A stretch of DNA of 64,000 nucleotides from positions 18,993,664 through 19,057,663 of the forward strand of contig JAHRHZ010000267.1 in NCBI GenBank assembly GCA_024137785.1, in the 5' to 3' direction. The position numbers were made by a program, and so were the translations under genes. The notes under the pieces were generated by a model. The model was not told the DNA's origin. It did not search any database and saw nothing but the letters and a program-made list of their open reading frames with translations. This document shows, piece after piece, positions 20,905 through 63,520 of this stretch; within the stretch, counting starts at the first letter, position 1, and each line of letters begins with the position of its first letter. Source of the DNA: Ginglymostoma cirratum (Eukaryota).

Positions 20905-20940
20905 ATTTCTGATGAAGGGCCTCGGCCCGAAACGTCAAGC
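20905..20940 (+). ncRNA. Minimal type I hammerhead ribozyme motif (PLE-associated), copy 1
   Basis: CTGATGA (20909-15), A, GGGCC-TC-GGCCC, GAAA, CGTC. Predicted cut after C20936. Confidence 0.7.
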
Positions 20941-21256
20941 TTTCCTGCTCCTATGATGCTGCTTGTCAACCAAGTCCTTCTCCCAGCTCATCTCCACCTC
21001 CCTAACCGGTTTTTCCTCTCACCCCAAGCCACACCCCCATCTCCTATCTACTAACATCATCCCGCCCCCTTGACCTGTCCGTCCTCCCTGGACTGACCTA
21101 TCTCCTCCCTACCCCCCTACCTACACTCATCTTTACTGGCTCCATCCCCGCCTCTTCGACTTGTCTGCCTCCTCTCCACCTATCCTCTCCTCTATCCATC
21201 TTCTATCCGCCTCCCCCTCTCTCCCTATTTATTTCAGAACCCTCTTCCCCTCCCCC

Positions 21257-21292
21257 ATTTCTGATGAAGGGTTTAGGCCCGAAACGTCGAGT
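21257..21292 (+). ncRNA. Minimal hammerhead ribozyme motif, copy 2
   Basis: CTGATGA (21261-67), A, GGGTT-TA-GGCCC, GAAA, CGTC. Predicted cut after C21288. Confidence 0.65.
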
Positions 21293-22659
21293 TTTCCTGC
21301 TCCTATGATGCTGCTTGACCTGCTGTGTTCATCCAGCCCCATGCTTGTTATCTTGCCTTCTCCCACATTATTTAATTTTACTGCTAAATGCTGTTGGAGC
21401 TGAAAATAGAACAAAAATCTCTCCGTTTGTTTTTGCTCTCACGGAATAGAAACTGGTCGAATGGAATTTACAGCACATTTTGTCTTTCCTTCACTGTTTC
21501 ACTATTACCCAAATTCAAGGTAATAGTGAGACACATCTCACTCTTACAATTGATACCCAATGAATTTTCATAGGTTGTAGACAAGAGGCATCATGGTTGA
21601 ACACATTTTTGCCGTTACCGGACATTCTAACACCTTCAGATTATATTAGTAATAAAGGTGTCAATATCATACTCTCAATATGCTGGTCACAAACCCAACA
21701 TTGTATTGTGTTGTTACCCTATATTCAATCCATTGTCCCTTTGAACACAGTTTCCTGCAGAGTCTGCACGATGTACGTGGATTAAGCCCTTTATTTGGTT
21801 GATGGTATATCTTTGCTTTATTCAGCAGAATAAACTAAAGATAATTTGATTGAGAAGCAATTGTTGCAAACAAATCGATCAGGAATACAGTTTACGCATT
21901 TGACATAAAAAAGGAAGTGATGTGCTCAATATTGACATCTGAGATTAGATTTCATCCTCGTACTATTTGGCTTCAGTATTTTACAGTGCAAAGATTTTAG
22001 TGGCTGTATCCAGCTAATGATAGCTTTTTGGTTTCCTGACTGATTATCATATTGAGAGACATCAAAAAACTAATCTGTTCAGGCATATTAATACAAAACT
22101 ATATTGCCCAATAAAAGTAAATGTTTACATTTTTCTTTCAAGATTAGTTTTGTTTTGAAAAAATCAAAGATAGTTTAACATTTCAATTTTTAAAATTTTA
22201 TAACATAACATATTGATTTATAAAACACATTTCATTTTGATAGTCCTACATGCTGGAGGATCTAACTGGGGCTTGCCACTGAAGACTGTTGCAGAGTGAG
22301 AAAGGCAAAACTTCATTCAACTAATCGCATAGATATCAAAAAGTATTGACTTCCAGTACATTTTCTTCCATTTGCACCCAGCACTAAAAACACACTTATC
22401 AGAATATCAATATTTTCAAAGTGACCTATTCATGGGATTTAATTGAGCTCTTTTCCTAAAAATCAGTTGAATGATTGATCATCCCACTGTTGTCTGGCTG
22501 AATATTTTATGTTTATAATGCTTTTGTCAGCCAAGGAACAACACTTAAAGTGTAGTCATCGTTGTAAAATAAGAAAGTGCTGCAGCCAAATTTCCATGTC
22601 AAGATCTTCATAAGCAAAAATAAGATAATCCATTCTGGTGATGGTTTTAAGGAATGACT

Positions 22660-22860
22660 ATTGGCAAAGGCATTGGCGATAACTCCCTGGTCAATTTGAA
22701 ATAGCATCTTGACTTTTTAGGTCAACCTGATAGGGATCCTTGGCTTAATGTCTCAATTGAAGGACAAAAACTTTGATCATTGCAGCATTCCCTGACTTCT
22801 GTACTGGAATGACTAGTGCCTAGATTATATGATTAGATTGGGATGTGTACCCACAGCTCG
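22660..22860 (-). mobile_element. Degenerate DeuSINE
   Basis: ttgaaatagcatcttgactttttaggtcaacctga...ccttggcttaatgtctcaattgaaggac...tgcagcattccctga...tgtactgga...cctagatt matches the reverse Deu domain. Confidence 0.55.
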
Positions 22861-25620
22861 CTACTGCATGATCTTGTGGAATGCAATCAGTGAGCATTAA
22901 CACCCGTCGCTTTTCAAAAGTAATTAATTGTACGTGATGTACATTGTGACATTTCAGCAAGTGCAAAGAAGTAATAAAAATCTACACTTTTTTTCAGAAA
23001 AGCTAGTTTGAATATTTATTGTGAACAAAATTAGGCTTGTGAAATTAGCCTTAAGAACGGCCGCTCAATAGTTATGTTGGAACGAGTAAAATTGTAAAAG
23101 GCTATGTGGATGTGTAGATACAGTATGCATCTATATATGCGTTTCATCCAGAATGAAATCTGGAAGCACAGTGCTAAAGTTGGTTGGACTATGTGACTAT
23201 AAGAGTGTCAGCACTGCCATCAAATGGTCCACTCACATAATTGTTTGTGTGAAACGAGTTTGCTTAAGGCAGAAGATTTAAAAAAAACTAGCAGCCTAGT
23301 AACAGCCTTTCATATTATGTTTAATTCAATGCAGGTAGTGGAAATAAAATACACTTATAATTTTTAATGTTCTAGATATACAGGTGAAATTCTACAGTGA
23401 GACACATAATTGCGAAATAAAAACAAAAATGTTACTCGCTAATTCTTGGGGCATTTTTATGAGGGATGAATCTCACTATTAATATTCACAGTGATATGTA
23501 ATTCTGTTTATGTAATATTGAAATTTATTTGACTTGTATCCATTTAAAATCTTTTATTCCAATTTTGTGCCCTTTGTGACGCATTATTTATAAAAGGTAC
23601 CGCATCTATGCATACAATCTATATGGACAAGGTATCATGCCCAAGCATCGATTTTTCATGTGTAAACAACACAATGAGTCCAAAACTATTCAACTGTAGA
23701 TGTCACCACATGTAAGCCCCATCTTATACTGAACACTCATCAGGAGGAATTGTTAGTTAACGGTTAAGAGTGGGAGTCCCTTTCGCCTTTCCAGTTCATT
23801 GCACAAGAGTATGTTTGCTCCTGCGGCAAAGATTTCTTTGCTTGAGTCAGTCTGTAAATTAAAGCTAGATATACATGGTTGATGTAGCTTAACACTACTA
23901 TTATATTAATGCATAGATACCTGAAGATGATGTACCATCAAGACAGTTAGATGACATCACAATGTGATGTTCCTTTACAAAAGTCTTTGGCTACTAAAGT
24001 TGTGAAAGTCGTTGAAATGGAATCGGTGCAGTCAACTGTGTATAGTGTTAAAGCCATGGAACATAGCCAGAATGTCAATAAGAATAGAACTGAGACTATG
24101 TATAAGTCTGAGATATTATAACAGAGCAAATAATTATTGTTGTTGATCAGCTTCAAATCATTTGTCTCAACAAGAATCCAATCTTTGTGGTATATGTTAC
24201 ATGGGCTAACACATCGGGCAGCACTTAGACCATGTCGTATTTGCGGTGGTCTTTGACCCAAAATATCATATCATGATGACAGTGAGTGGGCATTGAAAGG
24301 TAGTAACAGCTGATTTACTCAAAAGGCTGAAATGATGATTGCAGCAAAAGGATGTAGTCCTAACCATCATCCATCATTATCTGAGTTTAGTGCTGAAGTT
24401 TGCAACCAACAACAAAAACAACAAGCTACAACCTGTACCTGAGCACAACAATCACAAATGAAGAGGAACATTTGTGAGTATATTCTCCCTCTTTAAAATA
24501 AAAAGAGGCCGCAGTGCGCTGAACAAATGTGATGTCACTCTGATATCTCTTTTGGCGTAAATATCATGTGCAGGTGCTATTCATCTTTTTTTTGAAAACA
24601 ACAGCAATAGGAAAGGCACAAACCTAAAATAGCCAACAAGGAAGAAGCCAACACTACAGTATGTTCCTTTATACATGAGCTTTCTTTCTGAAAAGCATAA
24701 ATATAATAGTGAAAGTGGAAGTAAACATCTGACCATCAATTGGCACTCTATAGATATTTTGTCAAAATTTCAGTTATTCGAAGACAGGACAAATCCTTAC
24801 TTTGTCAAGCAATAAATAGCTGGTAAAGAAAGATGAGCTATAAAATATCTTAGGGTTTTAAGAAAAATAAAATCCTCCAGTACTTCAAATGATGACCATA
24901 AGGATCCTGCAAACTTTTGCAGTTTTTAGAAGGCTTGAGTCAATTTCAGCATTGACAGGCTTGAGTCCATGTATATTGACAACAGCCAGGTGAAAGAATC
25001 AATCAATTCATAGGCAGTTGTCAATACAAAGGGACTGATTGTGATTTCACAAAAGCTACCCTAGCTAAAAGACAATGTGCAACTGATCGTTGCCTTTACA
25101 CACATTAATCCTCCTGAAGGATGCAATTTGAATCATTGTAACTTGAGAACAAAGTCTGCAGGTGCTTGACTATGTAAGAACTTTTGCATCATCAACAAGG
25201 TCAGTGAAACATCTAAATAATGCAAGAAATGTGGCTTGTCTGACCATGAAGATAGTGTCCAGTATTTCACGACATTTGCAAACCATGTTTACAAGAGGGC
25301 ATTGGGTTAAATTGTATAATGAACCATATCACTCGGTGAAATCCAAAGTGTGACACAATGTCCCACAAAAACACCTACATTCTATCTGCAAAAAAGACCT
25401 TGAGCTTCCAGCTGCTTGCCAGTGTAATACATTGTCTGCCCTGGCCAACCTCTCTGTCTCAGACTTGCTTCGATGCTTCAATGAAGCTTAGTGCAAGCTG
25501 GAAGAACAACATCTTATTTTCTCAGAGATAATAGGGACTGCAGATGCTGGAGAATCCGAGATAACAAGGTGTGGAGCTGGATGAACACAGCAGACCAAGC
25601 AGCATCATAGGAGCAGGAAA

Positions 25621-25656
25621 GCTTGACGTTTCGGGCCTAGACCCTTCATCAGAAAT
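25621..25656 (-). ncRNA. Minimal hammerhead ribozyme motif, copy 3
   Basis: Minus strand CTGATGA-A-GGGTC-TA-GGCCC-GAAA-CGTC (25652-25625). Confidence 0.65.
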
Positions 25657-25803
25657 AGGGGAGGGGAAGAAGGTTCTGAAATAAATAGGGAGAGAGGGGG
25701 AGGTGGATAGAAGATGGATAGAGGACAGGATAGGTGGAGAGGAGACAGACAAGTCTTCTATCCGCCTCCCCCTATTTATTTCAGAACCCTCTTCCCCTCC
25801 CCC

Positions 25804-25839
25804 ATTTCTGATGAAGGGTCTAGGCCCGAAACGTCAAGC
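25804..25839 (+). ncRNA. Minimal hammerhead ribozyme motif, copy 4
   Basis: CTGATGA (25808-14), A, GGGTC-TA-GGCCC, GAAA, CGTC (to 25835). Confidence 0.65.
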
Positions 25840-26599
25840 TTTCCTGCTCCTATGGTGCTGCTTGGTCTGCTGTGTTCATCCAGCTCCACACCTTGTTAAC
25901 ATCTTATTTTCTGCCTGGGGACACTGCAACCTTCCAGACTCAACATTGAGTTCAATAATTTTAGGGTCAAAGCATCATCTTCAATGTCCCCATTCCAACA
26001 CCCACACACCAGGCCTTGTCATCACATGTGCTGCTGCCACAAAAAATCCTTTATCAGCCACTAATGGTCTCCATTAACAGCTGTTGATTCTACCAGTCTG
26101 ACCTTTACCCATTCCTTTATCTGCTCGACTGTTTCTCTCTCACTCTTTGGGCTCCATCTCCAACTAGTGTTTACTCGTTTCCCCTATCCCCTTCCCACCT
26201 TCAGTACATATACCAACATTTTCTGAGCTGCAATCAGTTTGTCTGACCTGAAAAGTTAACTCTGCTTTTTCTTCACAGATGCTGCCAGACCTGCTGAATT
26301 TTCCCAGAAATTTTTGCTTTTGTATCTAATTTCCAGCAGGCATAGTTCTTTGTTTTTTTTTTGGACAACTGAAATGTTTTTTACGTTGTTGAGAGTGCTG
26401 AACAGTTATTATTAATCCATCAGCATGCACTTATCGGTGTATCATTATGATCCATGAGGTTACAAACAGGTTAGTTCCAACACCAAAAATTCCATACTGC
26501 AACATCAAGTCTATTCATGATCTGGCTACCTTTTACCCAGACAGGTTTCATTCTACAGGTAACTGAAACGTCAACGCAGTTTTCCAACTGAAAGGTGGT

Positions 26600-26890
26600 G
26601 TTCTGTTTCTCCTCAGGGTGAGTCCATTTAAAAGGGGCACAGCTTTAAGCTGATTGAGTTGCAGCATATTTTAGTCAGAGGGTGCTGGGTTTTGGAATTT
26701 GCCACCCAGACTGTTGAGACAGAAATCCTTGTCTCATTATAAGGGAACCGGGATCTTCACCTGAAACGTTGTAACCAACAGTGCTACAGATCAGATGCTA
26801 GTAAGTCAGATTAGAATGGACAGTTAGTTTATTCAGCCACACAGACATGATAGATTGAATGCCCTCTGTCTGCGCTGTAACTTTTCCATG
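26600..26890 (+). mobile_element. Degenerate CR1 3' fragment
   Basis: aggggcacagctttaag...cagagggtgctgggttttggaatttgccaccc...cacagacatgatagattgaatgccctctgtctgcgctgtaacttttccatg. Confidence 0.6.
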
Positions 26891-32400: not shown

Positions 32401-32569
32401 ATATTTTTAATTAAAATAAGGACACATTGAACCAACTCTTTCTTTCATTGTTTACAGTAAGGAATAGATCAACTAGCTGAATGTCCCAAAGAAGTTATTA
32501 TTGAATTGAGAGCTCACCAAAGTTAATGTAAGAAATATGACAGTAATAAAGAAAATAATGGCATTCAGC

Positions 32570-39426: not shown

Positions 39427-39530
39427 ATCAACCTGCTCCGAGATGTTCTTACACACCTCTGGATCAAGGTGGAACTTGAATCCAGGCCTCCTAGCTCAGA
39501 GGTAAGGACACTACCATTGTGCCACAAGAC
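39427..39530 (-). mobile_element. Short tRNA-derived SINE (~100 bp)
   Basis: Minus strand tcttgtggcacaatggtagtgtcc...ggattcaagttcc has A and B boxes. A more decayed copy lies on the plus strand at about 45830-45930. Confidence 0.6.
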
Positions 39531-40517
39531 TCCCCCGCCTCCTGCCTTAAACAGTGAGAGAGATTCAGGTCATTGAATGCTTGCATCTGTTCATGTGATC
39601 CAGTTGCTTTGAAGTTGGCCTTTCATCACGAGCTCTGTTACAAAGGTTTTACACAACCAGTGGTCACATTGAAACGAAGCAGAATTGTTCAAAAACTTGT
39701 TCTATTCATTTATTAGATCTATGTGATTCCTGTCCATCTTTTTGGGGCCTTTAAGTATTTGTTTTGGAACCCAGGGTTAACACACTACTCCCCATGTGTG
39801 CACTGGCCAAAATGTTTTGGTTTTTCTAGACTACTCTAAAAGCTCTGGACACCCAAGAGTAATCTAAGAGCTTAGATACAACACTGGCCGCACTTCATAA
39901 AGGGAAGTGTGAGAAGGTGATGTTCCAAAAACAAATGTCACATTATTAAAGCTTCACTTACAAACTATCTTAACAAATTACACCCACCAGGGTCTTTTAC
40001 AACTAAGTCCAAACCAAGAAATGCATTCACAGCTTGTTTATTTGACTCTGTACATTGCTGAGTTCCCAAAACTTGAGAGCTTTCATTCTTGTGTAATTTC
40101 ATATCAAACTTTCTTGGGAGCTAATACCTATTCTACGTTTCATTACTTCACAAATCATTTTTGATGCTACATGATCGCTTCATGTATCAGAATTCCAAAC
40201 ACACATTTAGGATTAGTACCAGTTGTCACCCCTAACATAAATAAAGGTTAGATACTTTGATGCCCTCGCTGCTTTCATTTCCTGTTGACTCCTCCAACCC
40301 CACAAACCTTTGAGATCTTGTTGGTCTTCCAATTCTGACCTCTCTTACATCTCATTTTCTTCACCCCACCATTGATGACATTGCTGGTCATGAAATAGCT
40401 TATGGAGTTGTTATAATGTCACTGAAACCCAAGCTAATGTTCTGGATATGTGGATTCAAATCCCAATAGGGCCAATAGTGAAATTTGAATTTACAGTGGC
40501 CATCACTGTTGACTCAG

Positions 40518-40874
40518 GGGCAGCACGGTGACTCAGTGATAAGTCCTGCTGTCTCACAGCACTAGGGACCTGGGTGCAATTCCAGCCTTGGGGGACTGTG
40601 TGAAGTTTGCACATTTTCCCCATGTCTGTGTGGGTTTCCTCCTGGTGCTCTGGTTTCCTCCCACAGTCCAAAGATTGCAGGTTAGATGGATTGGCCATGT
40701 TAGATTACCCATGGTGTCCAGGGATGTGTAGGTTAGGTGACCTAGCCATGGGAAATGTAGGCTTACAAGCATAGGTTGGGGGAGGTGGGTTGAGTCTGGG
40801 TGGGATGCTTTTCAGAGAGTCGGTGTGGACTAGCTGGGCCAAATGGCCTGGTTCCACAGTGTAGAGATTCTATG
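40518..40874 (+). mobile_element. Near full-length HE1-type V-SINE
   Basis: gggcagcacggtgactcagtg head, V-domain and tail gggccaaatggcctggttccacagtgtagagattctatg. It is inserted into an older L2-like relic (about 40150-41100). Confidence 0.9.
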
Positions 40875-42920: not shown

Positions 42921-45150
42921 GAGTCTTGAAGTCCACTGGAAGACTCAGAGGAGAATGCTTTCTGTCCTGATATTGCAACATGCTCCTGAGTGCTTTAATA
43001 CACCACTTTCTTTACTTGGGAAGCTCTTCCGTCAGGATCTTTTCTGAGAGCATTCATAGGCTGGAAGTGAATCAATGTGTGCAAAAACAAGTACAAGGTG
43101 GAAGGACCAGCTGGAAAGCTGTGATGATCTTAAAGCTATGCAACGAGACTGCTTCAGTTTTAAATGAAACTTTTTTTTGCACCAGGTAAAACATGAGTAT
43201 CTAATTCATTGGTTGAATCTGGCATACAGATATATTTCTTAATAATACTTCAGCCAAAGTCAAATGCTGTTAGGCAAAAGTATGGGTCTTAGTCAGAATA
43301 ATTTATATGCTTCACATGGAGAATTTGCATAGGAGCCCCACTTAGGCCTGAGGCTGTTCACTGATTCCTTTCAATACTTTTATCTTCTTGCTTATACTGA
43401 AAAGACTTTGCAGTTCCGTCTTTTATCACATATCATTTCGATCTCCCCTAGCTAGTTACAGCTACTTTAAATATTAATCCAAGCTCTGCAATTATCAATG
43501 CCTCAATTTCTCTCAGATCTCTCTGGTTATTCAGTGCTGCTTTAAAACACCCCTGACCCTTATAAATACTGCATATAGCACTTCTCTAAATCCACTCCGT
43601 ATCTCCAGTTACCACACTGCTTTGATCGAAATCATGAAGCTGTATACATCTGCAGGTGCAGGAAATAACTGGGAATAGTGTTCCATTTGTATCTGCAGTA
43701 ATGAGGCCGTGATAAAAATGCTGATTTTTGTCATTGTGATGATTCTCTAATGCTCAGTCAAAAATGAAAACCCTTTTGTATTTTATATTCTATGTATATG
43801 CATATGCTTGAACCATCATTCAAAACTTAGCAGCTACTTTTCTATGCTCTTAACACTATCCCATCCTGTTCCTGTCTTCTTAACTTTGCTTCAACCAGCT
43901 GAAGGTTATTCATTTATTATCTTCTATTCATATGTAGCAGATCCTTCCAGCTTCTTCCCTCCACTTTGAATACCTATTTGATCTTTTCAGCTTCTCCACA
44001 GCACTACTGTGTTTTTGATTTATTTTAACTGTTCTCCTGAAGTTGTTTACCCCTAGCTGGAAAAGGTTTCATAGCCTCTCAGTCAGTATCACTACCCTAT
44101 ACAAGTAGCTTTCTGTTTAATGCGTAGACCCTGACATTAGATGTTATTAGATTATTAATTCCAGGAGACATTACAGGCTGATCTTTGTTATATCCAAAAT
44201 TCAGACATTGCTAGGTTTTCCAATATGGTTGGTTGGACTGATAATGAGGAGTATGAACTCTTGCTAATTATTTTTTCTTCTTGCTAACCCTGGTATAGTG
44301 AAATGAGTTGTGGTGCCTGCCCAAAACCCTGCAGCTTCCACATTGAGCAAAGTTCAGTAACCAAACTCAGACATTGACTAAACTAAGGAGCTTCAGGTCT
44401 CAGTGGAATGCTTTTATTTGAAGCTTCTGTAATCCCACTGTCTTTCTATTTTCTACAGTGATGCATTGGGAAGACAGGAGGCATAATTTATTTGCCAACC
44501 ATTCACTTTGCTACCTTGGCACTGGTGTTATCACACGGTCTCTATCCATCTCCTATTTTGTACTAAACCATTTGCAACAAGGCTGTAACATTGACCCTGA
44601 ATTTGAGCTTTTATATTGTCAATGCCACTTACTTCCACCACTGTAATATTGCCCTCTGTCATTTTTCAGATTTTCTGCTACTGCAAACTATAATCATGTC
44701 TTTTACACCTCCAATTTTGAATTCTCCAATGTTCTGTGTGTAGGTCTTCCATCAGCCATCCAGTATTAACTCCACTTTGTCCAGAATGTTGCTGCTCAGA
44801 TGCCATTTCACAATAAGTCACTCCCATGCATTACCTTGACTCTCATTGATTGCAGAGACTCCTTGGTTCCAACACATTCAATTTAAGATTTAACTTCAGG
44901 CCCCTTGGTGGACTCACTCCAACCTAGTTCAACAAGTTTCTCCAGCTTGGCATCCCATCCGGACTCCTCAGGTTCACAATTATAGCCACCTGTGAAATCC
45001 CCTTTCCCTTGCTCTCCTAGAAGGAAAAAGCAGTGAAAGAAAACAATAATTCTTGGAAACAAATATACTGAGTATACTGGAGCTCTATTTTGAAGTAACA
45101 AAACAAGTCAAACCAATATATGTCATTCACAAGTCCTGGAAAATGGTTTC

Positions 45151-45285
45151 AGAGATAGTAGGAACTGCAGATGTTGGAGAATCTGAGATAACAAGGTGTA
45201 GAGCTGGATGAACACAGCAGGCCAAGCAGCATCATAGGAGCAGGAAAGCTTGACGTTTCGGGCCTAGACCCTTCTTCAGAAATGG
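45151..45285 (-). mobile_element. Solo PLE family A tail with hammerhead motif (copy 5, 45252-45279)
   Basis: Nearly identical to 25524-25655. Minus strand CTGAAGA-A-GGGTC-TA-GGCCC-GAAA-CGTC. Confidence 0.8.
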
Positions 45286-46429
45286 TACTAGTTACCATAA
45301 GTCATTTCCTCTGGTACTTGTCAAAACTCCTCTACTACTCTTTTCCTCTTTCCTATGTTGTGAATATGTAATCCAAAAATAATTTCAAAGACCAGGTATT
45401 GATTTTTCAATTTCATTGCTGGTTTCAGGTATGAACGACTTTTTAAATAGTCTCCAAGATGGCTGCCAGACCTTTTTACAACTTAAACCTTCTCAAGGCT
45501 CTGGAATTTTCACAGTGGACTATAAAGAGACAGCCCGTGAGACTTATACATTTTCGAATATTAAGGAAACTCTAAAAACAATGATAATACTTTTCTGATA
45601 TTGACTCAATGCTTTTCAGACAAGGAGTAAATTCCACTGAGAGCTTCATTAAAAGAAAGTGGGTTCTGTTCATTATGGAAGTAAAGGTTTCAGCCCAGAT
45701 AGGGGGATAACCCAACTGCCTGAATGGTATTACCATGACATTTATAAGGGACCATGATCTTGCAGGCTAAAAGCCAGTCACATGGACACAGCTAACCATA
45801 GGAGATGCAGGACAGGGTAGGGCAGGAACTCCTGTGGTACACTGACAGTGTTCCTACCTCTATGCTGCAAAGGCCTCGGTTCCAGTCTTACCTACTCTAG
45901 ACAGATATTATGCCACATCTGAACTGTTGGTTTAAAAGTCTCCAAAAAGGCAGGATAAGCTACTAAAGTCTGGAATCAACACAGCTTCTCTCTTTTTCTC
46001 GACAATCTTGTAACATTATGAGAGTTTGACAAAAGAGTGACCAGCTTTACCATCCCTCCTGTCTGAAATCTCCCACTCCTGACATCAAATCAATATCATT
46101 GTCTTCAGAAAAAACAAAAATTGAGCAGCTACATCTTTAAACTAATATGATGGATGATTAAAAAGATATTTCTGTTGCTTATGCATTATCAACTATCTTG
46201 CACCTGCAACTCTGAGCTTGTACATTTCCCTGGTTCTGCACGCTTCATGGAAGTCAGAATGCAATTTTCCCTTTTTAATGATTGTCTATTTTCTTATGAA
46301 GTTATAAAATATGGACTATTAATCTTTAATTCACTTGAAAAAACTCAGCTTGAAATGAGCCAGGACACTTGTAAAACCACTGCAGAAGCCACCATTACCT
46401 GCTAACAATTCTTAAACAATCTTGTCCAG

Positions 46430-46795
46430 GAACTAAAACAGAAAAATCCTGGATAAAGTCACCAGATCTAACAGCACCTGTGGGGAGAAAACAGAGTTAA
46501 CATTTAGAGTATAGTGACCCTTCTTCAGAACTAATAGAATCAAGGGAGGTGAGGAATTTATGCTGAAGAAAGGAGTCAGGGTGTGGGTGAGGAATGAATG
46601 GATGGATGGTGATGGAGAGAGTGAGGAAAACGTTAGGCAGACAAAGGAGCTGTTAATAGTAAATCAAGGAAGAGAAAAAGCTAGATAGGTGACAAAAGTC
46701 ACTGGGCTAAAAACATTAACTCTCTATTTTTTCAGCATCTACAGATGCTGCCAGACTTGCTGCTTTTCTTCAGCACATTCAGTTTTCTCTTCAGA
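46430..46795. mobile_element. PLE family B inverted pseudo-LTR relic, interrupted by a CR1 (the tail resumes at about 47146-47175)
   Basis: Minus copy (acagagttaacattt...gtgacccttcttcagaact) followed by a plus copy (aaacattaactct...acagatgctgccagacttgctg). Confidence 0.6.
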
Positions 46796-47125
46796 TAGAG
46801 TCATGGAATCACACAGGTCAGAAACAGACTCTTTGGCCCAATTTGTCCATACCAACTAAGTTGCCCATCCTAAAATAGCCCCACTTGCCTGTGTTTGGCC
46901 TGTATCCCTCTAAACTTTTCCTATTCGTGTATCCACCCAAATATCTTATGAATGTTGCAACTGTAACTGCATCAATCACTTCCTCTGGTGGTTCATTCCA
47001 CATACAAACCACCCTCTGTATGAAAATGTTGCCCCTTGGGTCCCTTTTAAGTCTTTTTCCTCTCACCTTAAAAAAAAGCCCCCTAGTTTTGAACTTCCTA
47101 CCCTGGGGTAAAGACCTTTGTTATT
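46796..47125 (-). mobile_element. CR1/HER1 LINE 3' fragment
   Basis: Minus ORF RGKRLKRDPRGNIFIQRVVCMWNEPPEEVIDA; tail agagtcatggaatc. Confidence 0.85.
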
Positions 47126-48253
47126 CACAAATTAAACTCCATCAGCCTCCAGCAACCTCAGTTCTTTGCTTTATTATATGAGAAAGAACCGTGCTACCTG
47201 CAGGACTCTGAATATGCAGTTGGAACGCCAGTCACATAACAGCAACCACCTTTCTAGCAAATATAGAAACAGGCCAAACGGCTTGTTGAAAGGTCTTTCC
47301 TTTGAATGATTATGACCAGCTGTAGGTGGAGCATTGTGTGTGCGTTTTCAAAGTCGAAGGATTGCGTTTAAATTTGCATCAACATGCCATGTATTAGAAA
47401 TGAATGTGAACAAAAAGGTCATCAGGACCCATTTTGTAATTTGCCCAACTCTTAAAGGGCTGTCCTTTTCCCCTGTATGCATACATACCTATTTTAAGCA
47501 CTTTGTTTTTAACTTTTGGGCTGAAGGCCATTTTTAATTCTGCTGAAATCACTCTGACAGTACTTTAGCAAACTACTGACTGTAAAGTTTATCAGTTTTC
47601 CTGAGATGATAACATCCTCAGACTACATAACAATAAAGACTATTTGTGGCTTGCAACTTTTTGAAAGTGCAGCAAAAGGAATGTTGCATTGAAAAAACAG
47701 GCTGCATTTCACAGACAAATTTTATCTTTAGTACTGTTTTACTCAATGTTGGAGAATGGTAGATTACAATTCAAAAGAGATTATATCTCCTGTTTAGCAG
47801 ACAGCAGACCCTCAGCTCTCACCAGAGCTTCAAAAGCATCATTGGAACAAACTAAAATATTTTTCTCCTTTGGAGTTAACTTTTAAACTTCACCTCCTCA
47901 AATTGAATTAATGGGGAAAAAAAAATAAGCTGGATTTCCGCGTCCCTTCCATGGTGAGAAGGATGCCCAACAGGTCAGCTTAATCAGGTAAGAGACACAA
48001 AGTCAGATTCACTCCTTCCCATTTATTCGCAGGTTGAGGATGTTGCCAACGGGTGGCAACAAGCATTTCTGTAGGGGTTAGTATCTCATTACTACCATCA
48101 CTCATTGGCATTAACTTTGCCTACCCAATTAACTTCTGCCCGGTTAAGAAACCTGATCTTCAGACAACAAAAAAACAGATGTACACTTATTGAATTGCTC
48201 TACTTATAGTTGCTGCATTGTCCTTGTCATGACTTTAGCTCTCAACCCCAAAG

Positions 48254-48628
48254 TATGAGGGGTGACCTTCTAGAGGTTTATAAGACCGAGAGGGGCTTAG
48301 AAAGGTTAAATAGGCAAGATCTTTTCGCTGGGACTGGGGAGTCAAAAACTAGACGACATAGCTTTAAGGTGAGAGGGCAAAGATTTAAAAGGGGCCTAAA
48401 TGGCAACTTTTTCATGCAGAGGGTGGTGTGTGTATGGAATGAGGTTCCAGTGGAAGTGGTGGAGGCTGGTACAATTACAACCTTCTAAAGGTATCTGGAT
48501 GGGTACATGGGTAGGAAGGGTTTAGAAGGATATGGACCAAATGCTGGCAAATGGAACGAGATTTATCTAGGATATCTGATAGACTGAAGGGTCTGTTTCC
48601 GTGCTGTACATCTCTATGACTTTATGAT
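48254..48628 (+). mobile_element. CR1/HER1 LINE 3' fragment
   Basis: MRGDLLEVYK...KTRRHSFKVRGQRFKRGLNGNFFMQRVVCVWNEVPVEVVEAG; tail gtgctgtacatctctatgact. Confidence 0.85.
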
Positions 48629-53010: not shown

Positions 53011-53104
53011 CTGAAGAAGGGTCTAGACCCGAAACGTCAGCTTTCTTGCTCCTTTGATGTTGCTTGGCCTGCTGTGTTCATCCAGCTCTACACCTTGTTA
53101 TCTC
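53011..53104 (+). mobile_element. Solo PLE family A tail beginning at the hammerhead core (copy 6)
   Basis: CTGAAGA (53011-17), A, GGGTC-TA-GACCC, GAAA, CGTC, followed by the family A tail ...catccagctctacaccttgttatctc. Confidence 0.8.
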
Positions 53105-53789
53105 GCCTTTTCATTACCCTTTGTCCATAGCACATGTTACATTCCCAAGGAATACCAAAAAAACGGTTAAACATGATTTTATTTTCACAAAACTACTGTG
53201 ACTGTCTGATTATCTTGAATTTGTCCTACAAAGTCCTTGAATAACTTCTAACGTTTTCTGCATGATAGATGTTAAGCCAATTATTGGATAGTTTCCTGTT
53301 TTCTGTCTCCTTCCTCCTTTTTGAGTGAAGCAGTTACACTTATTATTTTATGGATTTTTGGAATTATGACTGGGCTAGCAGCAAAAATGCTAGAATAATT
53401 GTCTCCCAGTATTTGATCAAAACAAATGCAAGAATAGCGGCTGTTTGAATACAGCATGTCAAATGCTGCTTGGTTGACATCAGCTAACCAGGCAGTGATC
53501 AAAGATCAAACCTGGACTGTAAAGCATTCTATATCATAGACTAGGTCTAGGAGGAGTGGTTGAAGCATGTTGCTATTTCTTTCCTGCATTTATTTTTAAT
53601 TTATGCTTTTGGTCTCCGAGTGAACCAGAAGGAAAGGCAAATTGGCTATGAAAAATTGAACATGCACATGCTCAGGGTAATTGTGGAGTGATGACATCAA
53701 CTGATTATAGGCAAAACCTCTTCTGCTTTATTTACTTTTCCATTGACTTGGGCATCACTGGTTGTCCATTTCTAAATGCCTTTGATATT

Positions 53790-54700: not shown

Positions 54701-57021
54701 GGCTTGAGGCGTATATGTAATGAATTCATGGTGTGGTGTTCATTAAACAAAAAATGTACCTTTCTGCTTCTTTTAGTGCAGTGCTTTAATAATGCAATGA
54801 TGGATAGGTAACAAATTCCGAACCCAGAAAGAAAATGGCCATACCCTGTAGGTTTTAATTCATTAAAGGAACAATAACTTTTGATGTTCAACACATTTCT
54901 TGCTGGAAATATTGGAAGATGCTTCAGCTGTTAATCCTACAATATTCTGCTGACTGATGGTAATTGATAACAAAGAGCTGTTTCAAAATGCTTGCACATT
55001 TGATTTCCCAGACAGTCATAATAGTCTCACCTAACAAATTAGTAAAACCTTTATGCATATTGACATGAGTTTCTTCTATTTTTGACTGAATACTTACTCA
55101 ACATGGGTGAAAAAAGCACATTTGTTGAAGAAGGTTTTAGTTTAAAGCTTTATTCTTCTAAGCTATCCATTATAAAATTATGGCTCAAAACAATTTGCGT
55201 TATATTAGTGATAAGATTAGTATTTTTAAAGGTGAGAATTATAGGCAGTTTCATGCTTCTTGTGTATTGCCTAGTGATGCTTTGAGTGTAAAATAATTTC
55301 CCATGTTATGAGACTACACAAAAGGGTTCTTGACAAGGACTATACACTGTGGCAATTGTCCTGTCGTAAGATCAATTCTTCACTCAAGTGAGTGAACATT
55401 AACAGGCTTTATTCAGCATAATTATTTACAATAGGTGGTAAGAGAGGATGTCATGAGAACGCTACAGACTCTGGTTCCAGTTCTATGTGATTTAACATCA
55501 CATGGCTCCTAACATATATGTTCAACGATTATTTCTAGAGTAAGGCTATAGTTAATTCTTTATTCCACATATCATCCTCACTTTGAGGCACTATCAGGAG
55601 AAAAAAGAAAACTGAAGAAGGTTCTTACAGTTTAACATAACAGAAGGTAGACCTTGAATTTTAACAACCTATGTACTGCATGCTTAAACATTCCATTAAG
55701 TGTGCAATATTTTAAGAAATGTGTACTATATTTTGACGTTTTAGAAATTTCAGACTTTTCAGACCCAAAAGTCTGCGCTTTAATGCCCATATTTCCTCTT
55801 AGCATTGCAGTACTATTGAAATTGAACAGATTTATGTCTGGTGTATGTAATTACATAGAAAGGTAATGCTTCACAAGGGCAAGACAAATGGCTGTAAATG
55901 CACTGTTGTTCAATATAGTAAATTATCTATTAGTACATTGAGAGCAAATTGTAACAAATAAAAATGTGACTTTTCACAACTTTACTACAACACCATTTAA
56001 TACTTTTACATTTGAGTGTTGTTTTGATTGGAAGCAGCGTCCTAACAGTCTGGCTTATCAGTTTTTTTCAAAATCAACATGTATATTGTGGGCATTCCTC
56101 TACACAGTTAGGCTCCCCACATGACTAAATCTGCGTTTATATGTTGTGCTATGCATTGCCAACCAGTCAGGATTGCCCTGGGGCTCCCAGCAATTAAAGA
56201 TTAATGTCCTGGACACTGCTGTTAGCAACCAGAAAGGAAAATTGCAGGAACATTAAAAAGCAGTTTTATTTTATTTCCTTTGAACATTGCTCTTTGTTCA
56301 TTATAGAATGGGGGAGCAGAGAGAGCTAATGGCTCAGTTTAGCTAAACATTTAGCATGTGAGATAGTTGCATGCCAAAAATGTGAAGGCTAATCCCCATT
56401 TTTGCTGAGGGAGATGTGGTCCCTGCCCCTCACGCTATCTGTGATAAAAAAGAATGGCAAGTTATTGTGGATTGGTGAATGATTGTCAGTGAACTGAAGA
56501 AGAAATTATAAAATCTTGTTAGTGGGGTATGGATGTTTGACGAGAGGCTGAGATCATATAGTGAATCCTAAAGGCATATGTCCAAGTAGAGTTGGCTCCA
56601 TGTTTGTGGCAATAGAACTGAACATCTGAATCTCATACAGTCAACTAAACTCCAAGACTGTATTGGCTTGGCCACAAAATTATACACCTTGGCACAGCTG
56701 GTTTTGGTGTCATTATGAATTTTAAAATTACCATTCCTCCACCTCCATCAACATCTAGCACAGTCTGAACTAATCACCATGTATGACAGGTTACAGTATG
56801 GCTGTCAAGTGCAGCTCACTGATATTTTATGAAGATTGTGCTTGTTAGCTTGTATGTTCGGCAGGGTATTTGTATCTGATTAGGAATACTTATGCTAGCT
56901 TCCTGAACATAAGGAGTAGATGTGTGTAATGTAACGTTGAATGGTTCAATAGACCTTTCAATATTACAGCTCCTGATATGTACATGTATTGCAGTCACAG
57001 ATTCATCAACATCTGGGCTAA

Positions 57022-57605
57022 TATAGAACATTGAACTGTACTGCACAGGACAGGCCCTTTGACCCATCATGTCTGCACTAACCATGATGCCATTCTATAC
57101 TATTCCCAACTGCCTGCACATGCTCCATATTCTTCTATTGCTTGCCTGTTCACATATCTGTCTGAATGCCTCTTAAATGCTGCTATCATATCTGCTTCTA
57201 CCAGCTCCCCCAGCAGCGCATTTCAGGCACCCACCGCTACCTTTATCCAAAAACTTGCCTAGCACATTTCCTTTAAACTTTATCCGTCTCACCTGAAACT
57301 TATGCCCCTTAGTACTTGACATTTCCAACCTTGGAAAAAGACTCAAAATATTCACCCTATCCATGCCTCACATAATCTTATATACTTCTATCAGGTCGCC
57401 CCCTCAGCCTTCAACGCGCTGGCAGAAATGATCCATGTTTGTCCAACATCTCCTTATGGCTAACACACACCAATCCAAAAAACATCCTGGTAAACATCTT
57501 TTGCATCCTCTCCAAAGCCTCCATATCATCCCTATTGTGTTTCAAACAGAACTGCACACAATACTCCAAATGTGGCCTAACTGAATTTTCATACAGCTAT
57601 AACAT
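57022..57605 (-). mobile_element. CR1 LINE 3' fragment
   Basis: Minus ORF MDRVNILSLFPRLEMSSTKGHKFQVR; tail atagaacattgaactgtactgcacagg. Confidence 0.85.
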
Positions 57606-57967
57606 TAAGCTGCCTAGTTAAAAACAGAGCATGCTTCCATCAGCGTGTCATGTTTTAAGTGGATCCAATTAAGATGAAATCTGAGACCTTTGTAACCTCT
57701 CGTCACATGCTATAAAGCGATGATAATACCACAAGCATGTCTATTAAAGCTATACTGCTTACTAGTTGTGATACCCAATGTAATATTTCCATCATCATCA
57801 TGATTTTGATGCTTGACTTGCCAATTTAGCTCTCACATTTCTTTTCCTGGCCCATTTGTGAACAAACACAACTAAAGAAAGAAACAGCAAAGTGTGCAAA
57901 TGATGTGGAGAGGGGCAAAGAGAGGACCCTCAATAGAAGACCTTAGCCCAATAACAATTCTCCTACA

Positions 57968-58110
57968 AAGAACTACAGATGCTGGAAATCTGAAACAAAA
58001 AGAAATAGCTGGACAGAAAGCAGAATCAGTTCTTCAGAACTCGAAACATTAACTCTGCTATCTCTCCACAGATGCTGCCTGCCTTGCTGAGATTCTCCAA
58101 ATATCTCAGT
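57968..58110. mobile_element. Collapsed PLE family B inverted tail relic
   Basis: aagaactacagatgctggaaatctgaaac (minus tail) joined to gaaacattaactctgctatctctccacagatgctgcc (plus tail). Confidence 0.55.
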
Positions 58111-60524
58111 TATTGTAACATTCTCTTACCCCACCTCTTCCAGGAACCATACTAGGGATGGCCACCATTCATCAAGATGGTGATTAATGAACTATGATGT
58201 TTCCTCCAAGCAGACATGCACTGCAGAGCAAGGTGAAAACAGCACTGCTATCAAAGAATCCATCACCCTCAATTTTTACAAATCATGGTTCTTCTAGTTT
58301 GGAACAAATGATATCACCATCATTTTTCTGTTAAACATTCATTGCTACCTCAGGATAAAGGGCTTTACTGACTTTTCTCTAAACATGATCTTTGACAAGG
58401 TTTTGGGCTTCCCCATGATACGGGAAACTATTAACTGCTTGAACAGGTCTCTGAGGCATGAGTGGAGGTTAGAACGGAGGCCTTACAGGAAGTAAAGTGT
58501 GAGAAAGTGTCGTCAGGTTAATTGTGAAGTCTCTTTTAAACTGAAAAAAACTGAAATCATCCTCCTTGGTTGTTTACTGTAATTTCACCAAACTCTCCAG
58601 CTAAATGTGTTGATACGTAAAGTTGGTATTCTACTTCACACAACACTGAGTTTTACATCCCATAACCAGTCCAACTGCCCCACAATTAGTATCAAATATC
58701 TTTTTGTGTTTCCATCACAGTGAAGTGTTAGTTTTAATGATGCATACAGTTCGTGGAGCATGCTTTATCTCATAAAATTAATACTTAAAAGTTAATGTAC
58801 TAGTATTATATGTACTGCTCATTGGGTAAACGTACCGAGCCAGTCAAAAGTTCATCATTTATGTTTATCATGTCAATATTTCAACAAGCAGTATTTTGTC
58901 ACAAACAATAGACAGCCATTTGATATTGTAAAGGTCTCAAACGTAAGATTATTAAGTCTATTGCCTCAAAGTGTATTTCCCTTTATATATTTTCCATTGT
59001 ACTTGTAAACATATTCCATGGTGCCTTAATGAATGTACTGCTACAATGTCTGAATTACTCATCTGATTTTCTTTTCTGTCTCACCTCAAATGAACCTGCA
59101 TTACATGCAACATAATATTTATGGCACCTGCACAATATGTTGTACATGCTTTCTGCATAATCTTGCCAATAACATTCTCCACAGGAATGCATAATTCTTC
59201 AAAGCCCTGCACAATTCTACTTATAACACTTTGACAGAGCTCCAAAAACACCTGCTTTAACGCAATGCATTTTATACTACTGAGGTGTAGTGGCATAGCG
59301 GTAATGTCCCTGGCAAGTAACCTGGAGGGCCAGGTTAATACATTGGGATATTAGAACTAATTAAAGTTAAATTTAAATGATATTTCTGTCTTTTTTTTCG
59401 GAGGAGGAAGTAGAACACCAATATGGAAAATTGATCTCAAAACATTTACATTTTTTGAAAGAACTCAAAAAAGCCATTTCAAATGAATATAATTTATTTT
59501 GATTCACTCCCTCAGCCATTTTTAAAACTCCCTATCAACAAAAAAAACTGTATAAAATCGCATTAAATTTACATAGCCATGACCAGAACTTCCTTGCCAA
59601 CCATCTCTCACTGCGGAAAGGAATCGAGCCTACCATTAGCACTTATGGTCCTTTTCAATTAGGATTCATTACTGTATGGGGAACTACAAGAACTTGTGTT
59701 CTGTTTCATCAGCTATGATCAAGCAGCGATTCAGATCTCTTGTTTTGGTTTTCACAGTCCACCGCTTCCATATGATAGCAGGCCTTTTGTAGTGCCAGAT
59801 GAAAAAGTTACTAGCATTCTGTGCTTGCTCTGATCTGAAAATTTGAAGTGTAGGATTCATCAAAAGTGGACAGTTTGTCTGCTTCATATCAAATCATGTT
59901 ATCAACGGTCAAAATATGGCACACCTCCTGTTAATATCTTTCCACCGATCTGAGTTTGTGAGCAGGAAATTGTATCTCAGCATATTTGTGGTACAGCAAG
60001 CTGTTTAAAATCATGCTTGCTGCAATAATTGTGGTAAAGTCCACTTCTGGCATTACTTTGTTGGTGATTAGATGTACAGGAGTGTCAACAAACTCCACAG
60101 GACACAGCACTGAATTAGAATAGCCAAAATGCTGGAAATACAGTGGGTAACATGCACCACAGTATATGAAAACCTGATTGGATGGGATATAACATGCAGT
60201 GCTGGCGAAATGGGAAAGAATTTGGAAAGTGATAACACGTTCAAGGGCTTTGAAGAGGAAAGGGAGATTGAATGTCACGTTGGAATGTACAAGGATGTTG
60301 AGGTCAAGTCTTTGTCTTTTGAAGAGGATATGATAATGACAGGTACTGGACAACAAAAGCACCTGATACAGAATTGTTTACAGTATTGGCAAACATAGGA
60401 CCAGCAGGGAAAGCTGAACGGTCACGAATTTAATGGGAATAGATTGAAAGAGCAAGATTTGTGTCTCATGATAAAGATAAGCAATGAGAGGGTATCGGGA
60501 AAGATAAGAGAGAAAGCAAAATAA

Positions 60525-60662
60525 AATAAAAACAGAAAGAACTACGGATGCTGTAAATTAAGAACAAAAACAAAGTTGCCGGAAAAACCCAGTAGGTCTG
60601 GCAGCATTTGTGAAGGTAAAAACAGAGTTAACATTTCAGATCCAGTGACCCTTCCTCAGAAG
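60525..60662 (-). mobile_element. Solo PLE family B tail with decayed hammerhead motif (60630-60659)
   Basis: Minus strand CTGAGGA-A-GGGTC-ACTG-GATCT-GAAA-TGTT-aactctg. Confidence 0.7.
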
Positions 60663-61169
60663 CAAAATAACATGCTCATTAAGGATTATGGCAGATTTTT
60701 TTGAATCTGTGTCCCTTAGACTAAAGGAAATGAAGGCAAGGGCCATTCCAGGTGCAATAGTTTTCCTCAGAACTAGGATATCAAACTTAGAGGCCAGAGT
60801 TTGGTTCATTAAATTAGTAGTGTAGCGGCAGAAATGTTGAGGCAAAAAGATGGCCAAAGGCTGGGCAATTGGGACGTTGAACATGTGGTTCAAAATGAGT
60901 TAGGATAGTTTATTACAGGGAGTGAGACAGAATATGGTGGATTCTGGACTTGGAAGAGGGGATGTGGTTGGAGTGTGTCCTAAGGACATATTCAGAGATG
61001 GCCTTAAATACATTGGTACAATGGGACAAGCAAGATTATGTAAGGAGGCTTGGCGATGTGTTGGTCATGATATTGGGTTGAGAAGTTACATGAAGACAGA
61101 GATTCACAGACATCAAGAAATAAATGAACTCTAGAGAAGAGAAAATGTGATGAATTGAGATTTTTGTTT

Positions 61170-61509
61170 TCCTTTATTCATTAATGGATTGAGGACATCG
61201 CTGGCTAGACAGCATTTATTGTCCAGACCTAATTGCCCAGAGGGCAATTCAGAGTCAACCACATTGCTGTGGGTCTGGAGTCACATGTAGGCCAGACCAG
61301 GTAAGAATGGTCCCTAAAGGACATTAGTGAACCAGGTGGGTTTTTCCTGACAATTGATTCATTGTCATCATTAGACTCTTAATTCCAGATAGTTATTGAA
61401 TTCAAATTCCACCATCTGCTGTGGCAGGTTTTGAACCCAAGTCCCCAGAATATTATCTGGGTCTCTGGATTAACGGTCTAGCGATAATACCACTAGACCA
61501 TCACCTCCC
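61170..61509 (-). mobile_element. tRNA-derived SINE, near full length
   Basis: Minus head gggaggtgatggtctagtggt (A box) ... gggttcaaaacc (B box). Decayed heads of the same family lie at about 40400-40495 and 59283-59360. Confidence 0.75.
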
Positions 61510-62917
61510 CTTGAGATGAGGATTGAAATCGCAAGAATGAGAACACACTCAAGAATAAAGATTTCATGATGCTTTTTTTGAAAAAAAAAGTCAGTGGAGA
61601 ATGCTGATTTTGAGAGAGAGGCTAAGGAGGGTGAAATAAGGTAACATGCACGAAGGAGGAAAATGGACCAGAGGTGAAAGGGGACAAACCAAAAAGTGAT
61701 CTGGTGTTAGGGATCCCATTGCCACTGTGTTGTATGTAGAGGAGCAAGTGTTAGAAATATAGCCAGACAAGAAGGCTTTATTATGTGGCAAGTTGGCATC
61801 AGGGCTCAACCAGGTGCTGTTGGTGCAATCATCCATATTAATTTAACAAATAGTAAAGGCCTTTTTCAGAAGTGGAGGGAGAGAGAGGATTATTGGAAAC
61901 CGATCTGTTGAGAGAGTTCACAGTGTCAGTAATGGGAGGAAGAAAATTTGCAAGGTGCTCCCACTGGGACCACTGTGTGGAAGAACTGATGAGAGATTGT
62001 GATAGGGCAAATAGGTTACTTCTTGTAATCACAAAACACCAGGTTATAGTCCAACAGGTTTATTTGAAAATGCAAGCTTTCAGGGCCTTACTCCTCCAAA
62101 AGCTTGTCCATCCCAGTCCAACACTGACACCTTCACATCATGATTTCGTGCAATGCCTGTATTGGAAGCTTTGGTGCACACATTAGAAGATGAGAAGCAT
62201 TGAGACAACTGTAGATTTTGTTCATCAGGGCTTATGCCTGTGATGAAGGGAAGAAGACAAGAATATCGCTAAATTCTGAATAGTTGAGGTAAAGAATTGG
62301 AAAGGCTGCGTACCTTAGAGAAGAAGTGAAAGGATACAGAACTATCAAATAGAGGGGACAAGGAGAGGGAAAGAAAATAAATAGCTTGTTAAATCCTGAT
62401 TAAACCACAATCTGTGTAAACAACACCAGAGAGCTCCTTTCAAATTTGAACAAATACCTCCATTTGTCTGCTGTGAAACCATTACAGCCTCAGCCTGGAG
62501 GTATGAAATTTCAAAGTATTATGTGACACTGAGCTCAGCTTTATCTGTCCTAGTAACCAAGGTTGTTACCTGATCAGTCAACAAGTAATCAATTATTTCT
62601 GTTTATGCCTCATTCTCCGAAAATAACTCTTTTCCTTTCACAGTTGGTCTTCTCTAATATTTATTGTTCTAATCTTGCACTTTTGTTATTCACTGATTCC
62701 AAAAGCTTGATTACTGGGGCTTTAATTGAGCTGAAACAATTGGGTGGAAAAAATAGTGACAAAGTCAAGTGTCCAAACATTTGCCTCTGTTCCTGGGATC
62801 AGAAATTTTCCCAAGGGCAGGTGGAATGTGGGCCTGAAAACTCACTGGTATTCCTAAACAGGACAATTAATCTCATTGAGGGTGAAGCAAGTTTTTTTTT
62901 TAAAATGAGGGTGGTAT

Positions 62918-63520
62918 GGGGAAACGAAGTGTAGACTTGGCGACTGCTTTGCAGAACATCTATGTTCTGCTCGCAAAAAAGACCCTGAACTACCTGTTGC
63001 CTGCGACTTTAATGCACCGCCCTGCTCCCTGGCCAACATCTCTGTCTCTGGCTTGCTGCAGTGTTCCAGTGAAGCCCAACGCAAGCTGGAGGAACAACAC
63101 CTCATTTTCCACTTGGGGACCCTATAGCCCTCTGGACTCAATATTGAGTTCAATAATTTTAGGGCCTAAACTCTCCCATGTCCTAGCCCCCTACCCCACA
63201 TCCGAGGCCTTGTTACCACATAGCCTGCCATTACACACCCCCTGTTGTTAGTCACTAACAGTCCCCATTAACAACTATTCACCCTCCCAGCCTGATCGTT
63301 AGCAACTCCTTTGTCTGTCCAACTGTCTTTCACTCTCTTTGGGCCCTATCCTATTGTTTACTCCCTACCTCACCCACCTCCCTATTTTCTGCATATAAAT
63401 TGACGTTTTCCCAGCTATCATCAGTTCTGAGGAAGGGTCACCGGACCCAAAATGTTAACTCTGTTTTTTCCTTCACAGATGCTACCAGACCTGCTGAGCT
63501 TTTCCAGCAACTTTGTTTTT
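62918..63520 (+). mobile_element. Penelope-like element 3' end (family B): GIY-YIG endonuclease relic, 3'UTR and hammerhead motif at 63423-63460
   Basis: 62918-63169 translates GETKCRLGDCFAEHLCSARKKDPELPVACDFN...QRKLEEQHLIFHLGTL*PSGLNIEFNNFRA*, a frame not listed in the ORF track. Motif: agtt-CTGAGGA-A-GGGTC-ACCG-GACCC-(A)AAA-TGTT-aact. Confidence 0.85.

Follow-up and report, generated by a model that had tools for sequence, protein, structure and literature searches.

Predicted minimal hammerhead motifs in two related families of Penelope-like elements within a 64-kb stretch of the Ginglymostoma cirratum genome

Penelope-like elements (PLEs) of metazoans carry minimal hammerhead ribozymes (min-HHRs), whose recurring features are a nucleotide inserted between positions 9 and 10.1 (9a), a G10.1-C11.1 pair, a palindromic sequence at 15.2-16.2 and a short helix I, which has 3 bp in the published consensus (PMC4209133). 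Without a helix III, two such motifs pair through the palindrome for cleavage (PMC4209133, PMC6765202). The described architecture of PLE insertions includes 5′ truncation, partial tandems and adjacent inverted copies (PMC8557442), and an optional tail of 30-40 nt has been reported (PMC11167929). Here, we analyzed a window of 64,000 nucleotides from Ginglymostoma cirratum (assembly GCA_024137785.1, contig JAHRHZ010000267.1, positions 18,993,664 to 19,057,663, forward strand), for which a first-pass annotation made from the letters alone had proposed ribozyme-bearing PLE pseudo-long terminal repeats (pseudo-LTRs). All counts and comparisons of element copies reported below refer to this window.

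Our preferred interpretation, to which we assign a probability of roughly 80%, is that the motifs are minimal type I hammerheads of two related endonuclease (EN)-bearing PLE families of an elasmobranch, of which A is young and B is old, and that they are kept on master elements. This interpretation is based on the identity and anatomy of the elements, on conservation between the two families and on the decay of individual copies. In an active master element, the pseudo-LTR would carry the motif at a distance of about 60-100 nt 5′ of the tail in which copies terminate. Lacking its own helix III, the motif would need a second copy in the same tandem transcript, with which it would pair via the ACGU palindrome, probably helped by the protein of the element's open reading frame (ORF); both the dependence on a dimer and the assistance by a protein are taken over from the literature. 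We infer that the shark motif itself would cleave, with the cut predicted after GUC in family A and after GUU in family B. Selection would act on the master elements, while the copies in the window would be 5′-truncated by-products lacking the reverse transcriptase (RT), decaying neutrally and mostly inactive.

Profile searches combined with inspection identified 14 element pieces in the window, six of family A and eight of family B. The corresponding features are as follows:

10216-10310, plus strand: old solo family B hammerhead remnant and tail with degraded core
20437-20580, plus strand: 5′-truncated C-terminal remnant of the family A GIY-YIG endonuclease (tblastn to PLE proteins, E = 3e-12 with P0005; profile of 28 RT-EN relatives, independent E-value (iE) 2e-6)
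20906-20939, plus strand: family A minimal hammerhead, first unit of a partial tandem (C3 at 20909, predicted cut after 20936; stem II of 4 bp, helix I of 3 bp)
20982-21352, plus strand: second unit of the 352-nt partial tandem with 3′ untranslated region (UTR), hammerhead and short tail (C3 at 21261, predicted cut after 21288)
25351-25521, plus strand: left part of a family B element with endonuclease remnant (25369-25521), broken by a family A insertion
25522-25755, minus strand: inverted family A arm with hammerhead and long tail (C3 at 25652, predicted cut after 25625)
25754-25897, plus strand: direct family A arm with hammerhead and short tail (C3 at 25808, predicted cut after 25835), forming a near-perfect hairpin with the inverted arm
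25898-26350, plus strand: right part of the family B element with endonuclease end, 3′ UTR, hammerhead (about 26235-26262, first catalytic box deleted) and long tail
45149-45285, minus strand: solo family A hammerhead and long tail (C3 at 45279, predicted cut after 45252)
46428-46783, both strands: family B inverted pair with minus arm 46428-46660 (C3 at 46528, TAAA) and plus arm 46696-46783
53011-53105, plus strand: solo family A hammerhead and short tail, 5′-truncated exactly at C3, so that the 5′ strand of helix I is absent
57950-58105, both strands: family B inverted pair with short arms, a tail-only minus arm (about 57950-58036) and a plus arm starting from stem II at 58037
60520-60661, minus strand: solo family B decayed hammerhead and long tail (C3 at 60659; G10.1-U11.1, palindrome lost)
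62912-63524, plus strand: family B element with the C-terminal half of the endonuclease (62912-63160; profile iE 1e-17), 3′ UTR, decayed hammerhead (C3 at 63427; G12 to A, CG to TG) and tail

Eight CTGANGA/GAAA motifs were present at 20909+, 21261+, 25652-, 25808+, 45279-, 53011+, 60659- and 63427+, precisely the positions and strands given by the first-pass annotation; its stem II letter strings and the AAAA in place of GAAA at 63427 were likewise correct on re-reading of the sequence. Its observation that only the free position N varies within the CTGANGA box was an ascertainment effect, as six further pieces had been omitted (46528-, 26232, 10216, 46696, 58037 and the tail-only arm at about 57950-58036). 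These include 26232, with its deleted first box, and 46528-, where TAAA replaces GAAA and the fifth stem II pair is broken.

The pattern CTGANGA-N8-30-GAAAYGTY yielded eight matches against 0.06 expected, a number reached in none of 100 shuffles. Seven of these are listed copies; the eighth (16202-) was rejected as a hammerhead, since it has no stem II and lies within no repeat. With a full minimal-hammerhead descriptor written from the published consensus, we obtained six matches to core and stem II, five of them with a helix I of at least 3 bp, and none in 200 dinucleotide shuffles. The full descriptor was thus passed by five of the eight listed copies (20909, 21261, 25652, 25808, 45279). 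Because copies of one repeat are not independent, such controls overstate the significance and demonstrate no more than the repetition of the motif; we therefore took its meaning from the element context. This non-independence and the empty Rfam search described below speak for a chance hammerhead likeness within ordinary repeats. We nevertheless regard such a coincidence as extremely improbable, as both diverged families have the motif exactly at the PLE hammerhead site and with the extras specific to this ribozyme family (nucleotide 9a, G10.1-C11.1 and the palindromic 15.2-16.2). A covariance model built from nine copies necessarily recovered these nine, and above 18 bits it gave no further match. 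An opposite-strand hammerhead-like match at 63424-63402, corresponding to an upstream "anti-core" helix, was discarded, as it has no stem II and 129/500 shuffles fold equally well. Rfam microRNA-family matches at 25.6-25.8 kb result from the inverted repeat located there.

Protein homology, insertion architecture and a point-by-point match to the published consensus provide good support for the proposed identity as ribozyme-bearing PLE pseudo-LTRs. Coding remnants are found in three pieces (20437-20580, 62912-63160, and 25369-25521 continued at 25900-25955). A 64-aa fragment (62933-63124) matched 13 proteins among 22 candidates, some of which carry PLE RT motifs or a C-x2-C/YIG endonuclease start. 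With one of these 13 as the query, a search among 2429 candidates yielded 28 longer proteins that contain RT and GIY-YIG domains. Two of them, both from Chiloscyllium punctatum, are named and represent the nearest named RT relatives. Compared with a profile of the 28 full-length relatives, the window fragments match the C-terminal portion of the GIY-YIG domain (iE 1e-17 for family B and 2e-6 for family A). Pfam did not recognize the window fragments of 60-64 aa, and the endonuclease identity consequently rests on the homologues. Relatives spanning the RT-EN linker contain a CX2-5CxxC finger, including P0011, which is 70% identical to the window fragment; the window fragments themselves stop short of the linker. 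Nematis shares this linker with Neptune (PMC8557442), and Neptune and Poseidon are the only PLE clades that a recent preprint describes for vertebrates (bioRxiv 10.64898/2026.07.22.740005). Given the linker finger in the relatives and this vertebrate distribution, both families most likely belong to the Neptune clade. A further profile match at 60922-61164 (iE 0.41) was treated as chance.

The arrangement of the pieces shows the architecture of EN-bearing PLEs, with 5′ truncation, one partial tandem (20663-21317, period 352 nt), three head-to-head inverted pairs (at 25.7, 46.7 and 58.0 kb), target duplications and an optional tail of about 35 nt. The latter is reflected in two classes of 3′ ends, one at about 61-66 nt and the other at about 101 nt 3′ of the cut site, and hence about 35 nt apart. 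Judged by their sequence, the 14 pieces are 5′-truncated copies of two related EN-bearing PLE families. Family A copies are 91-96% alike. Family A is the younger of the two, because its pair at 25.7 kb interrupts an endonuclease remnant of family B and is flanked by a 15-bp target duplication (25508 and 25898), beyond which the coding remnant resumes. A 7-bp target duplication at copy 45279 overlaps the 5′ strand of helix I. The tandem units are joined by a 16-nt linker (20966-20981), and the tail of the first unit stops 29 nt past the cut site; 20909 and 21261 are the only same-strand pair able to form a dimer in cis. Both repeat families had been described as lying downstream of GIY-YIG C-termini. 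Among the listed motifs, only 63427 and the tandem pair 20909/21261 have their own remnant upstream. The description does not apply to 25652 and 25808, whose location inside a family B remnant is incidental, or to 45279, 53011 and 60659, which have none.

Next, we compared the copies with the published min-HHR. An intact CUGANGA box followed by the extra A is present in 9/14 pieces, the others being truncated or deleted at the box. All six family A copies have G10.1-C11.1 closing stem II followed by GAAA, and all six have the ACGU palindrome at 15.2-16.2 with no real helix III. Three family B copies retain the first box, and none of them has G10.1-C11.1 together with GAAA (AAAA, a G.U closing pair and TAAA, respectively), and the palindrome is found in none of seven. 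The NUH site is present, and helix I comprises 3-4 bp in 5/6 family A copies (weak, with U-A and U.G pairs) and 4 bp in 2/3 family B copies; in 53011 it is absent through truncation. Overall, five copies show all sequence features of the published consensus. The extra A and the short helix I, previously listed as caveats, are defining features of the min-HHR and not weaknesses.

The covariation of stem II that had been read from the window is not supported, as the changes are mostly one-sided transitions and the pair statistics are not significant. In family A, stem II consists of 4 bp and a tetraloop, since a fifth pair would leave a loop of 2 nt; the GGGTT variant is thus a change of the loop and not of the stem. 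Only two stem II changes occur among the six family A copies, both of them transitions, as are 22/26 of the family A substitutions. As 5/8 of the possible stem II transitions keep a pair, the chance that both changes preserve pairing is about 0.4. In the nine-copy alignment, 91.7% of stem cells pair. Two-sided changes occur in 2/8 pairs, with 353/500 shuffles as high, and the covariation score was matched in 13/500 shuffles, which is within the false-positive range of the tool. N7 is A in two family A copies (45279, 53011) that share other variants, including one in the tail, and this change is probably one subfamily event. In family B, G12 was lost in 3/7 copies and the central CG in 7/7 (TG in four, CA in two); since both TG and CA at 15.2/16.2 are the signature of CpG decay, ACGU appears to be ancestral.

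Several results weigh against our interpretation. No Rfam hammerhead model matched the whole window at E up to 5 or two short regions at E up to 10, although this would be expected for a motif without helix III. The profile of the 28 full-length relatives detected neither RT nor RT-EN linker in the window, which makes the clade assignment indirect. Within family A, core mismatches (0/66) were not significantly rarer than those in the flanks (20/571; p = 0.11), and family B showed no core conservation at all (12/63 vs 89/463; p = 0.56), with 9 of the 12 core mismatches stemming from two poorly aligned copies (26232 and 10216). Nearest-neighbour folding, which ignores tertiary contacts of the core and was run with no positive control, gave the natural tandem a double hammerhead lying 26-33 kcal/mol above the ensemble; under the same approach, short family A monomers folded into an inactive extended hairpin. 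These folding models would agree with a need for protein help. Finally, the comparison between the families relies on single copies of each: here, alignment z-scores were 13.4 for the endonuclease end, 6.9 for the hammerhead and 5.0 for the tail, above all 300 shuffles, whereas neither the 3′ UTR (0.4 and 1.9) nor the linker 3′ of the cut (0.1) did so.

The first-pass annotation had called families A and B otherwise different, but their endonuclease ends and tails are accordingly homologous. In helix I, one pair reads U.G in family A but G-C in family B. The retention of hammerhead and tail across an unalignable 3′ UTR appears to be a real sign of selection and better evidence for it than the variation within the window. 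This is compatible with master elements being under selection while their copies decay neutrally.

The activity of PLE hammerheads in published assays is modest: solo min-HHRs showed no detectable cleavage and dimers a low level (PMC4209133), and one of nine Xenopus dimer elements was cleaved (bioRxiv 10.64898/2026.07.22.740005). The hammerhead of an anole PLE cleaves only when the ORF protein is added, and no ends of RNA-seq reads mapped to its cut site (PMC11167929); a lack of cleavage of naked monomers or dimers would therefore not be decisive. The 25652/25808 pair forms a near-perfect hairpin of 341 nt (25560-25900, about 145 bp, -289 kcal/mol) in which the sense motif is buried in its antisense image. 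If transcribed, this inverted pair is a possible source of double-stranded RNA. In copy 53011, stem II and its loop (53019-53030) constitute a perfect 12-nt palindrome, and in co-folding models family A stem II pairs between molecules, which may compete with the active dimer.

The earlier suggestion that these repeats seed the genome with potential self-cleaving sites holds at the sequence level for five copies. In practice it is overstated, because family B cores have decayed, two intact copies lie within the hairpin and published solo min-HHRs are inactive. We consider it unlikely that the copies cut host RNA, and very doubtful that the dispersed copies as such are active sites cleaving host transcripts. 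The complete descriptor in five of the eight listed copies, the density of intact cores estimated below and a reported PLE expansion in whale shark introns (bioRxiv 10.1101/443036) would favor such activity, but the published assays, the hairpin and the family B decay oppose it, as does a CpG density peak at about 2-5 kb, which suggests that the promoter of the neighbouring gene PCDH11 lies well short of the copies.

No copy in the window begins at the predicted cut site, which is consistent with uncleaved RNA serving as the template. It would also suit a motif kept mainly as a non-catalytic signal, for instance for binding of the ORF protein, as a platform for RT initiation or as a 5′ boundary of the RNA, with cleavage being incidental. 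In line with this idea, catalytic mutants had no effect on insertion of the anole PLE in vitro (PMC11167929), Naiad PLEs thrive without hammerheads (PMC8557442), tail and hammerhead show similar conservation between the two families, and four of the 14 5′ junctions fall within -6 to +4 of C3. This junction cluster was recognized post hoc, with offsets set by hand from alignments, and its p-value of 0.001-0.01 for that window rises to 0.06-0.5 for any window. Moreover, coral and shark motifs have kept the catalytic consensus in common (two boxes, NUH and helix I), with N7 and H17 free. A mainly non-catalytic role seems to us rather unlikely. The junctions at or next to C3 are those of 45279-, 53011+, 60659- and 10216+, and the internal deletion at about 26235 also begins there.

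The short copies might instead represent a separate non-autonomous family, retrozyme- or SINE-like (short interspersed nuclear element) and composed of hammerhead and tail, that is mobilized in trans by the PLE protein. Two solo copies, 45279 and 53011, each begin at C3 or beside it and have N7 = A and the tail variant in common, and the 352-nt tandem period is close to the mean retrozyme consensus of 363 bp reported for one chondrichthyan (bioRxiv 10.64898/2026.07.22.740005). Against this, the first unit of the tandem runs on from an endonuclease remnant, ordinary heavy 5′ truncation accounts for the short copies, and only two copies share variants, which makes a separate family improbable.

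Four independent intact-core insertions in 64 kb correspond to about 62 per Mb (95% confidence interval 17-160), a rough figure from one window. Elasmobranch genomes have a size of 3-4 Gb. Extrapolated, the shark density exceeds the totals of about 4,000 motifs in coelacanth and about 9,000 in Xenopus, the highest vertebrate counts in PMC4209133, which were obtained with a different descriptor. It is conceivable, though speculative and in our view quite unlikely, that elasmobranch genomes hold in the order of 100,000 intact cores, including many mini-elements of about 95-135 nt made of hammerhead and tail with the 5′ end at the ribozyme start, where the hammerhead would mark the RNA 5′ end or stop the RT, and where numerous transcripts of related copies could act as dimer partners in trans and cleave host pre-mRNAs containing a sense copy.

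As to the neighbourhood, the ORF at 396-3497 (minus strand) encodes a protocadherin and represents the single large coding exon of PCDH11. Among the best 120 of 413 matches, its residues 780-1010 share 98% identity with PCDH11 of Chiloscyllium and 97% with that of Stegostoma and rays; identity is 94% for Callorhinchus and does not exceed 90% for bony vertebrates. This places the host among the elasmobranchs, with a weak separation of shark from ray. The CpG island mentioned above suggests a PCDH11 promoter nearby, which would place the PLE repeats upstream of the gene.

Family B copies carry a pyrimidine tract ending in YAG just 5′ of the conserved tail (63453-63478 (+), 46502-46478 (-), 26255-26279 (+), 58047-58071 (+), 10244-10266 (+) and 46714-46743 (+)). 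The TTAAC at the family B cut site resembles a branch point. Tract and YAG could form a splice acceptor overlapping the ribozyme; the AG at this place is absent in family A, and 60659 has CAA. In Drosophila Penelope, an intron end overlaps the ribozyme (PMC4209133).

Further repeats include a six-copy family, 68-83% alike (7373-7677, 8437-8771, 46870-47128, 48263-48621, 56962-57397 and 63521-63799), two copies of which are immediately adjacent to family B elements (46.8 and 63.5 kb). We take this family to resemble the 3′ ends of CR1/L2 long interspersed nuclear elements (LINEs). A two-copy repeat of about 300-345 nt (6490-6793 and 40534-40873) and a weak transfer RNA (tRNA)-like match at 39461-39531 (Rfam E = 2), for which ARAGORN predicted no tRNA, are presumably tRNA-derived shark SINEs. 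Two additional two-copy repeats (24027-24201/29229-29401 and 41807-41923/42621-42738) and a 55-nt tandem duplication (18602-18707) were observed.

In the literature covered, which left most subscription papers outside its scope, we found no dedicated description of the shark families beyond the one chondrichthyan of the retrozyme preprint and the whale shark PLE expansion. The present families extend the minimal hammerheads of PLEs to two shark families, and the natural 352-nt tandem provides material for studying dimer and protein-assisted cleavage. A genome with very many young copies, if true, would offer unusual power for mapping 5′ junctions and for detecting selection on the core. These copies leave the knowledge of the ribozyme class unchanged, and a possible very high copy number is the only surprise.

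Compared with the described systems, the shark motifs share with the min-HHRs of metazoan PLEs the CUGANGA box with extra nucleotide, G10.1-C11.1, GAAA, the palindromic 15.2-16.2 without loop 3, NUH and a short helix I, as well as the pseudo-LTR site 3′ of the endonuclease and the predominance of solo copies; the 40 species of the published alignment include no chondrichthyan, and the 4-bp stem II of family A lies at the short end of the published range (PMC4209133). By eye, the Neptune hammerhead of Acropora digitifera (row 1 of Fig. S3, clade from Table S1; PMC4209133) resembles family A in its 4-bp stem II starting from GGG, 4-nt loop, CG palindrome, GUC site and 3-bp helix I, and also closely in the sequence immediately 3′ of the cut site, but it differs in the 5′ strand of helix I and in N7 and comes from a coral, not a shark. 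The Anolis element PAc likewise has a hammerhead followed by an optional 30-40-nt tail, and its copies keep the uncleaved hammerhead; it differs in that it belongs to the Poseidon clade, its ORF starts in stem II and its ribozyme was shown to need the ORF protein (PMC11167929). Animal non-LTR retrozymes, reported in one chondrichthyan, also consist of tandem units each with a type I hammerhead and derive from PLE pseudo-LTRs (bioRxiv 10.64898/2026.07.22.740005). The shark tandem does contain two consecutive units with complete hammerheads, the minimum in the retrozyme definition, but where that definition excludes protein-coding sequence, its first unit is continuous with an endonuclease remnant. 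Having only two units and this joined remnant, it is a partial-tandem PLE insertion, and the shark families are new members of the known class of PLE min-HHRs.

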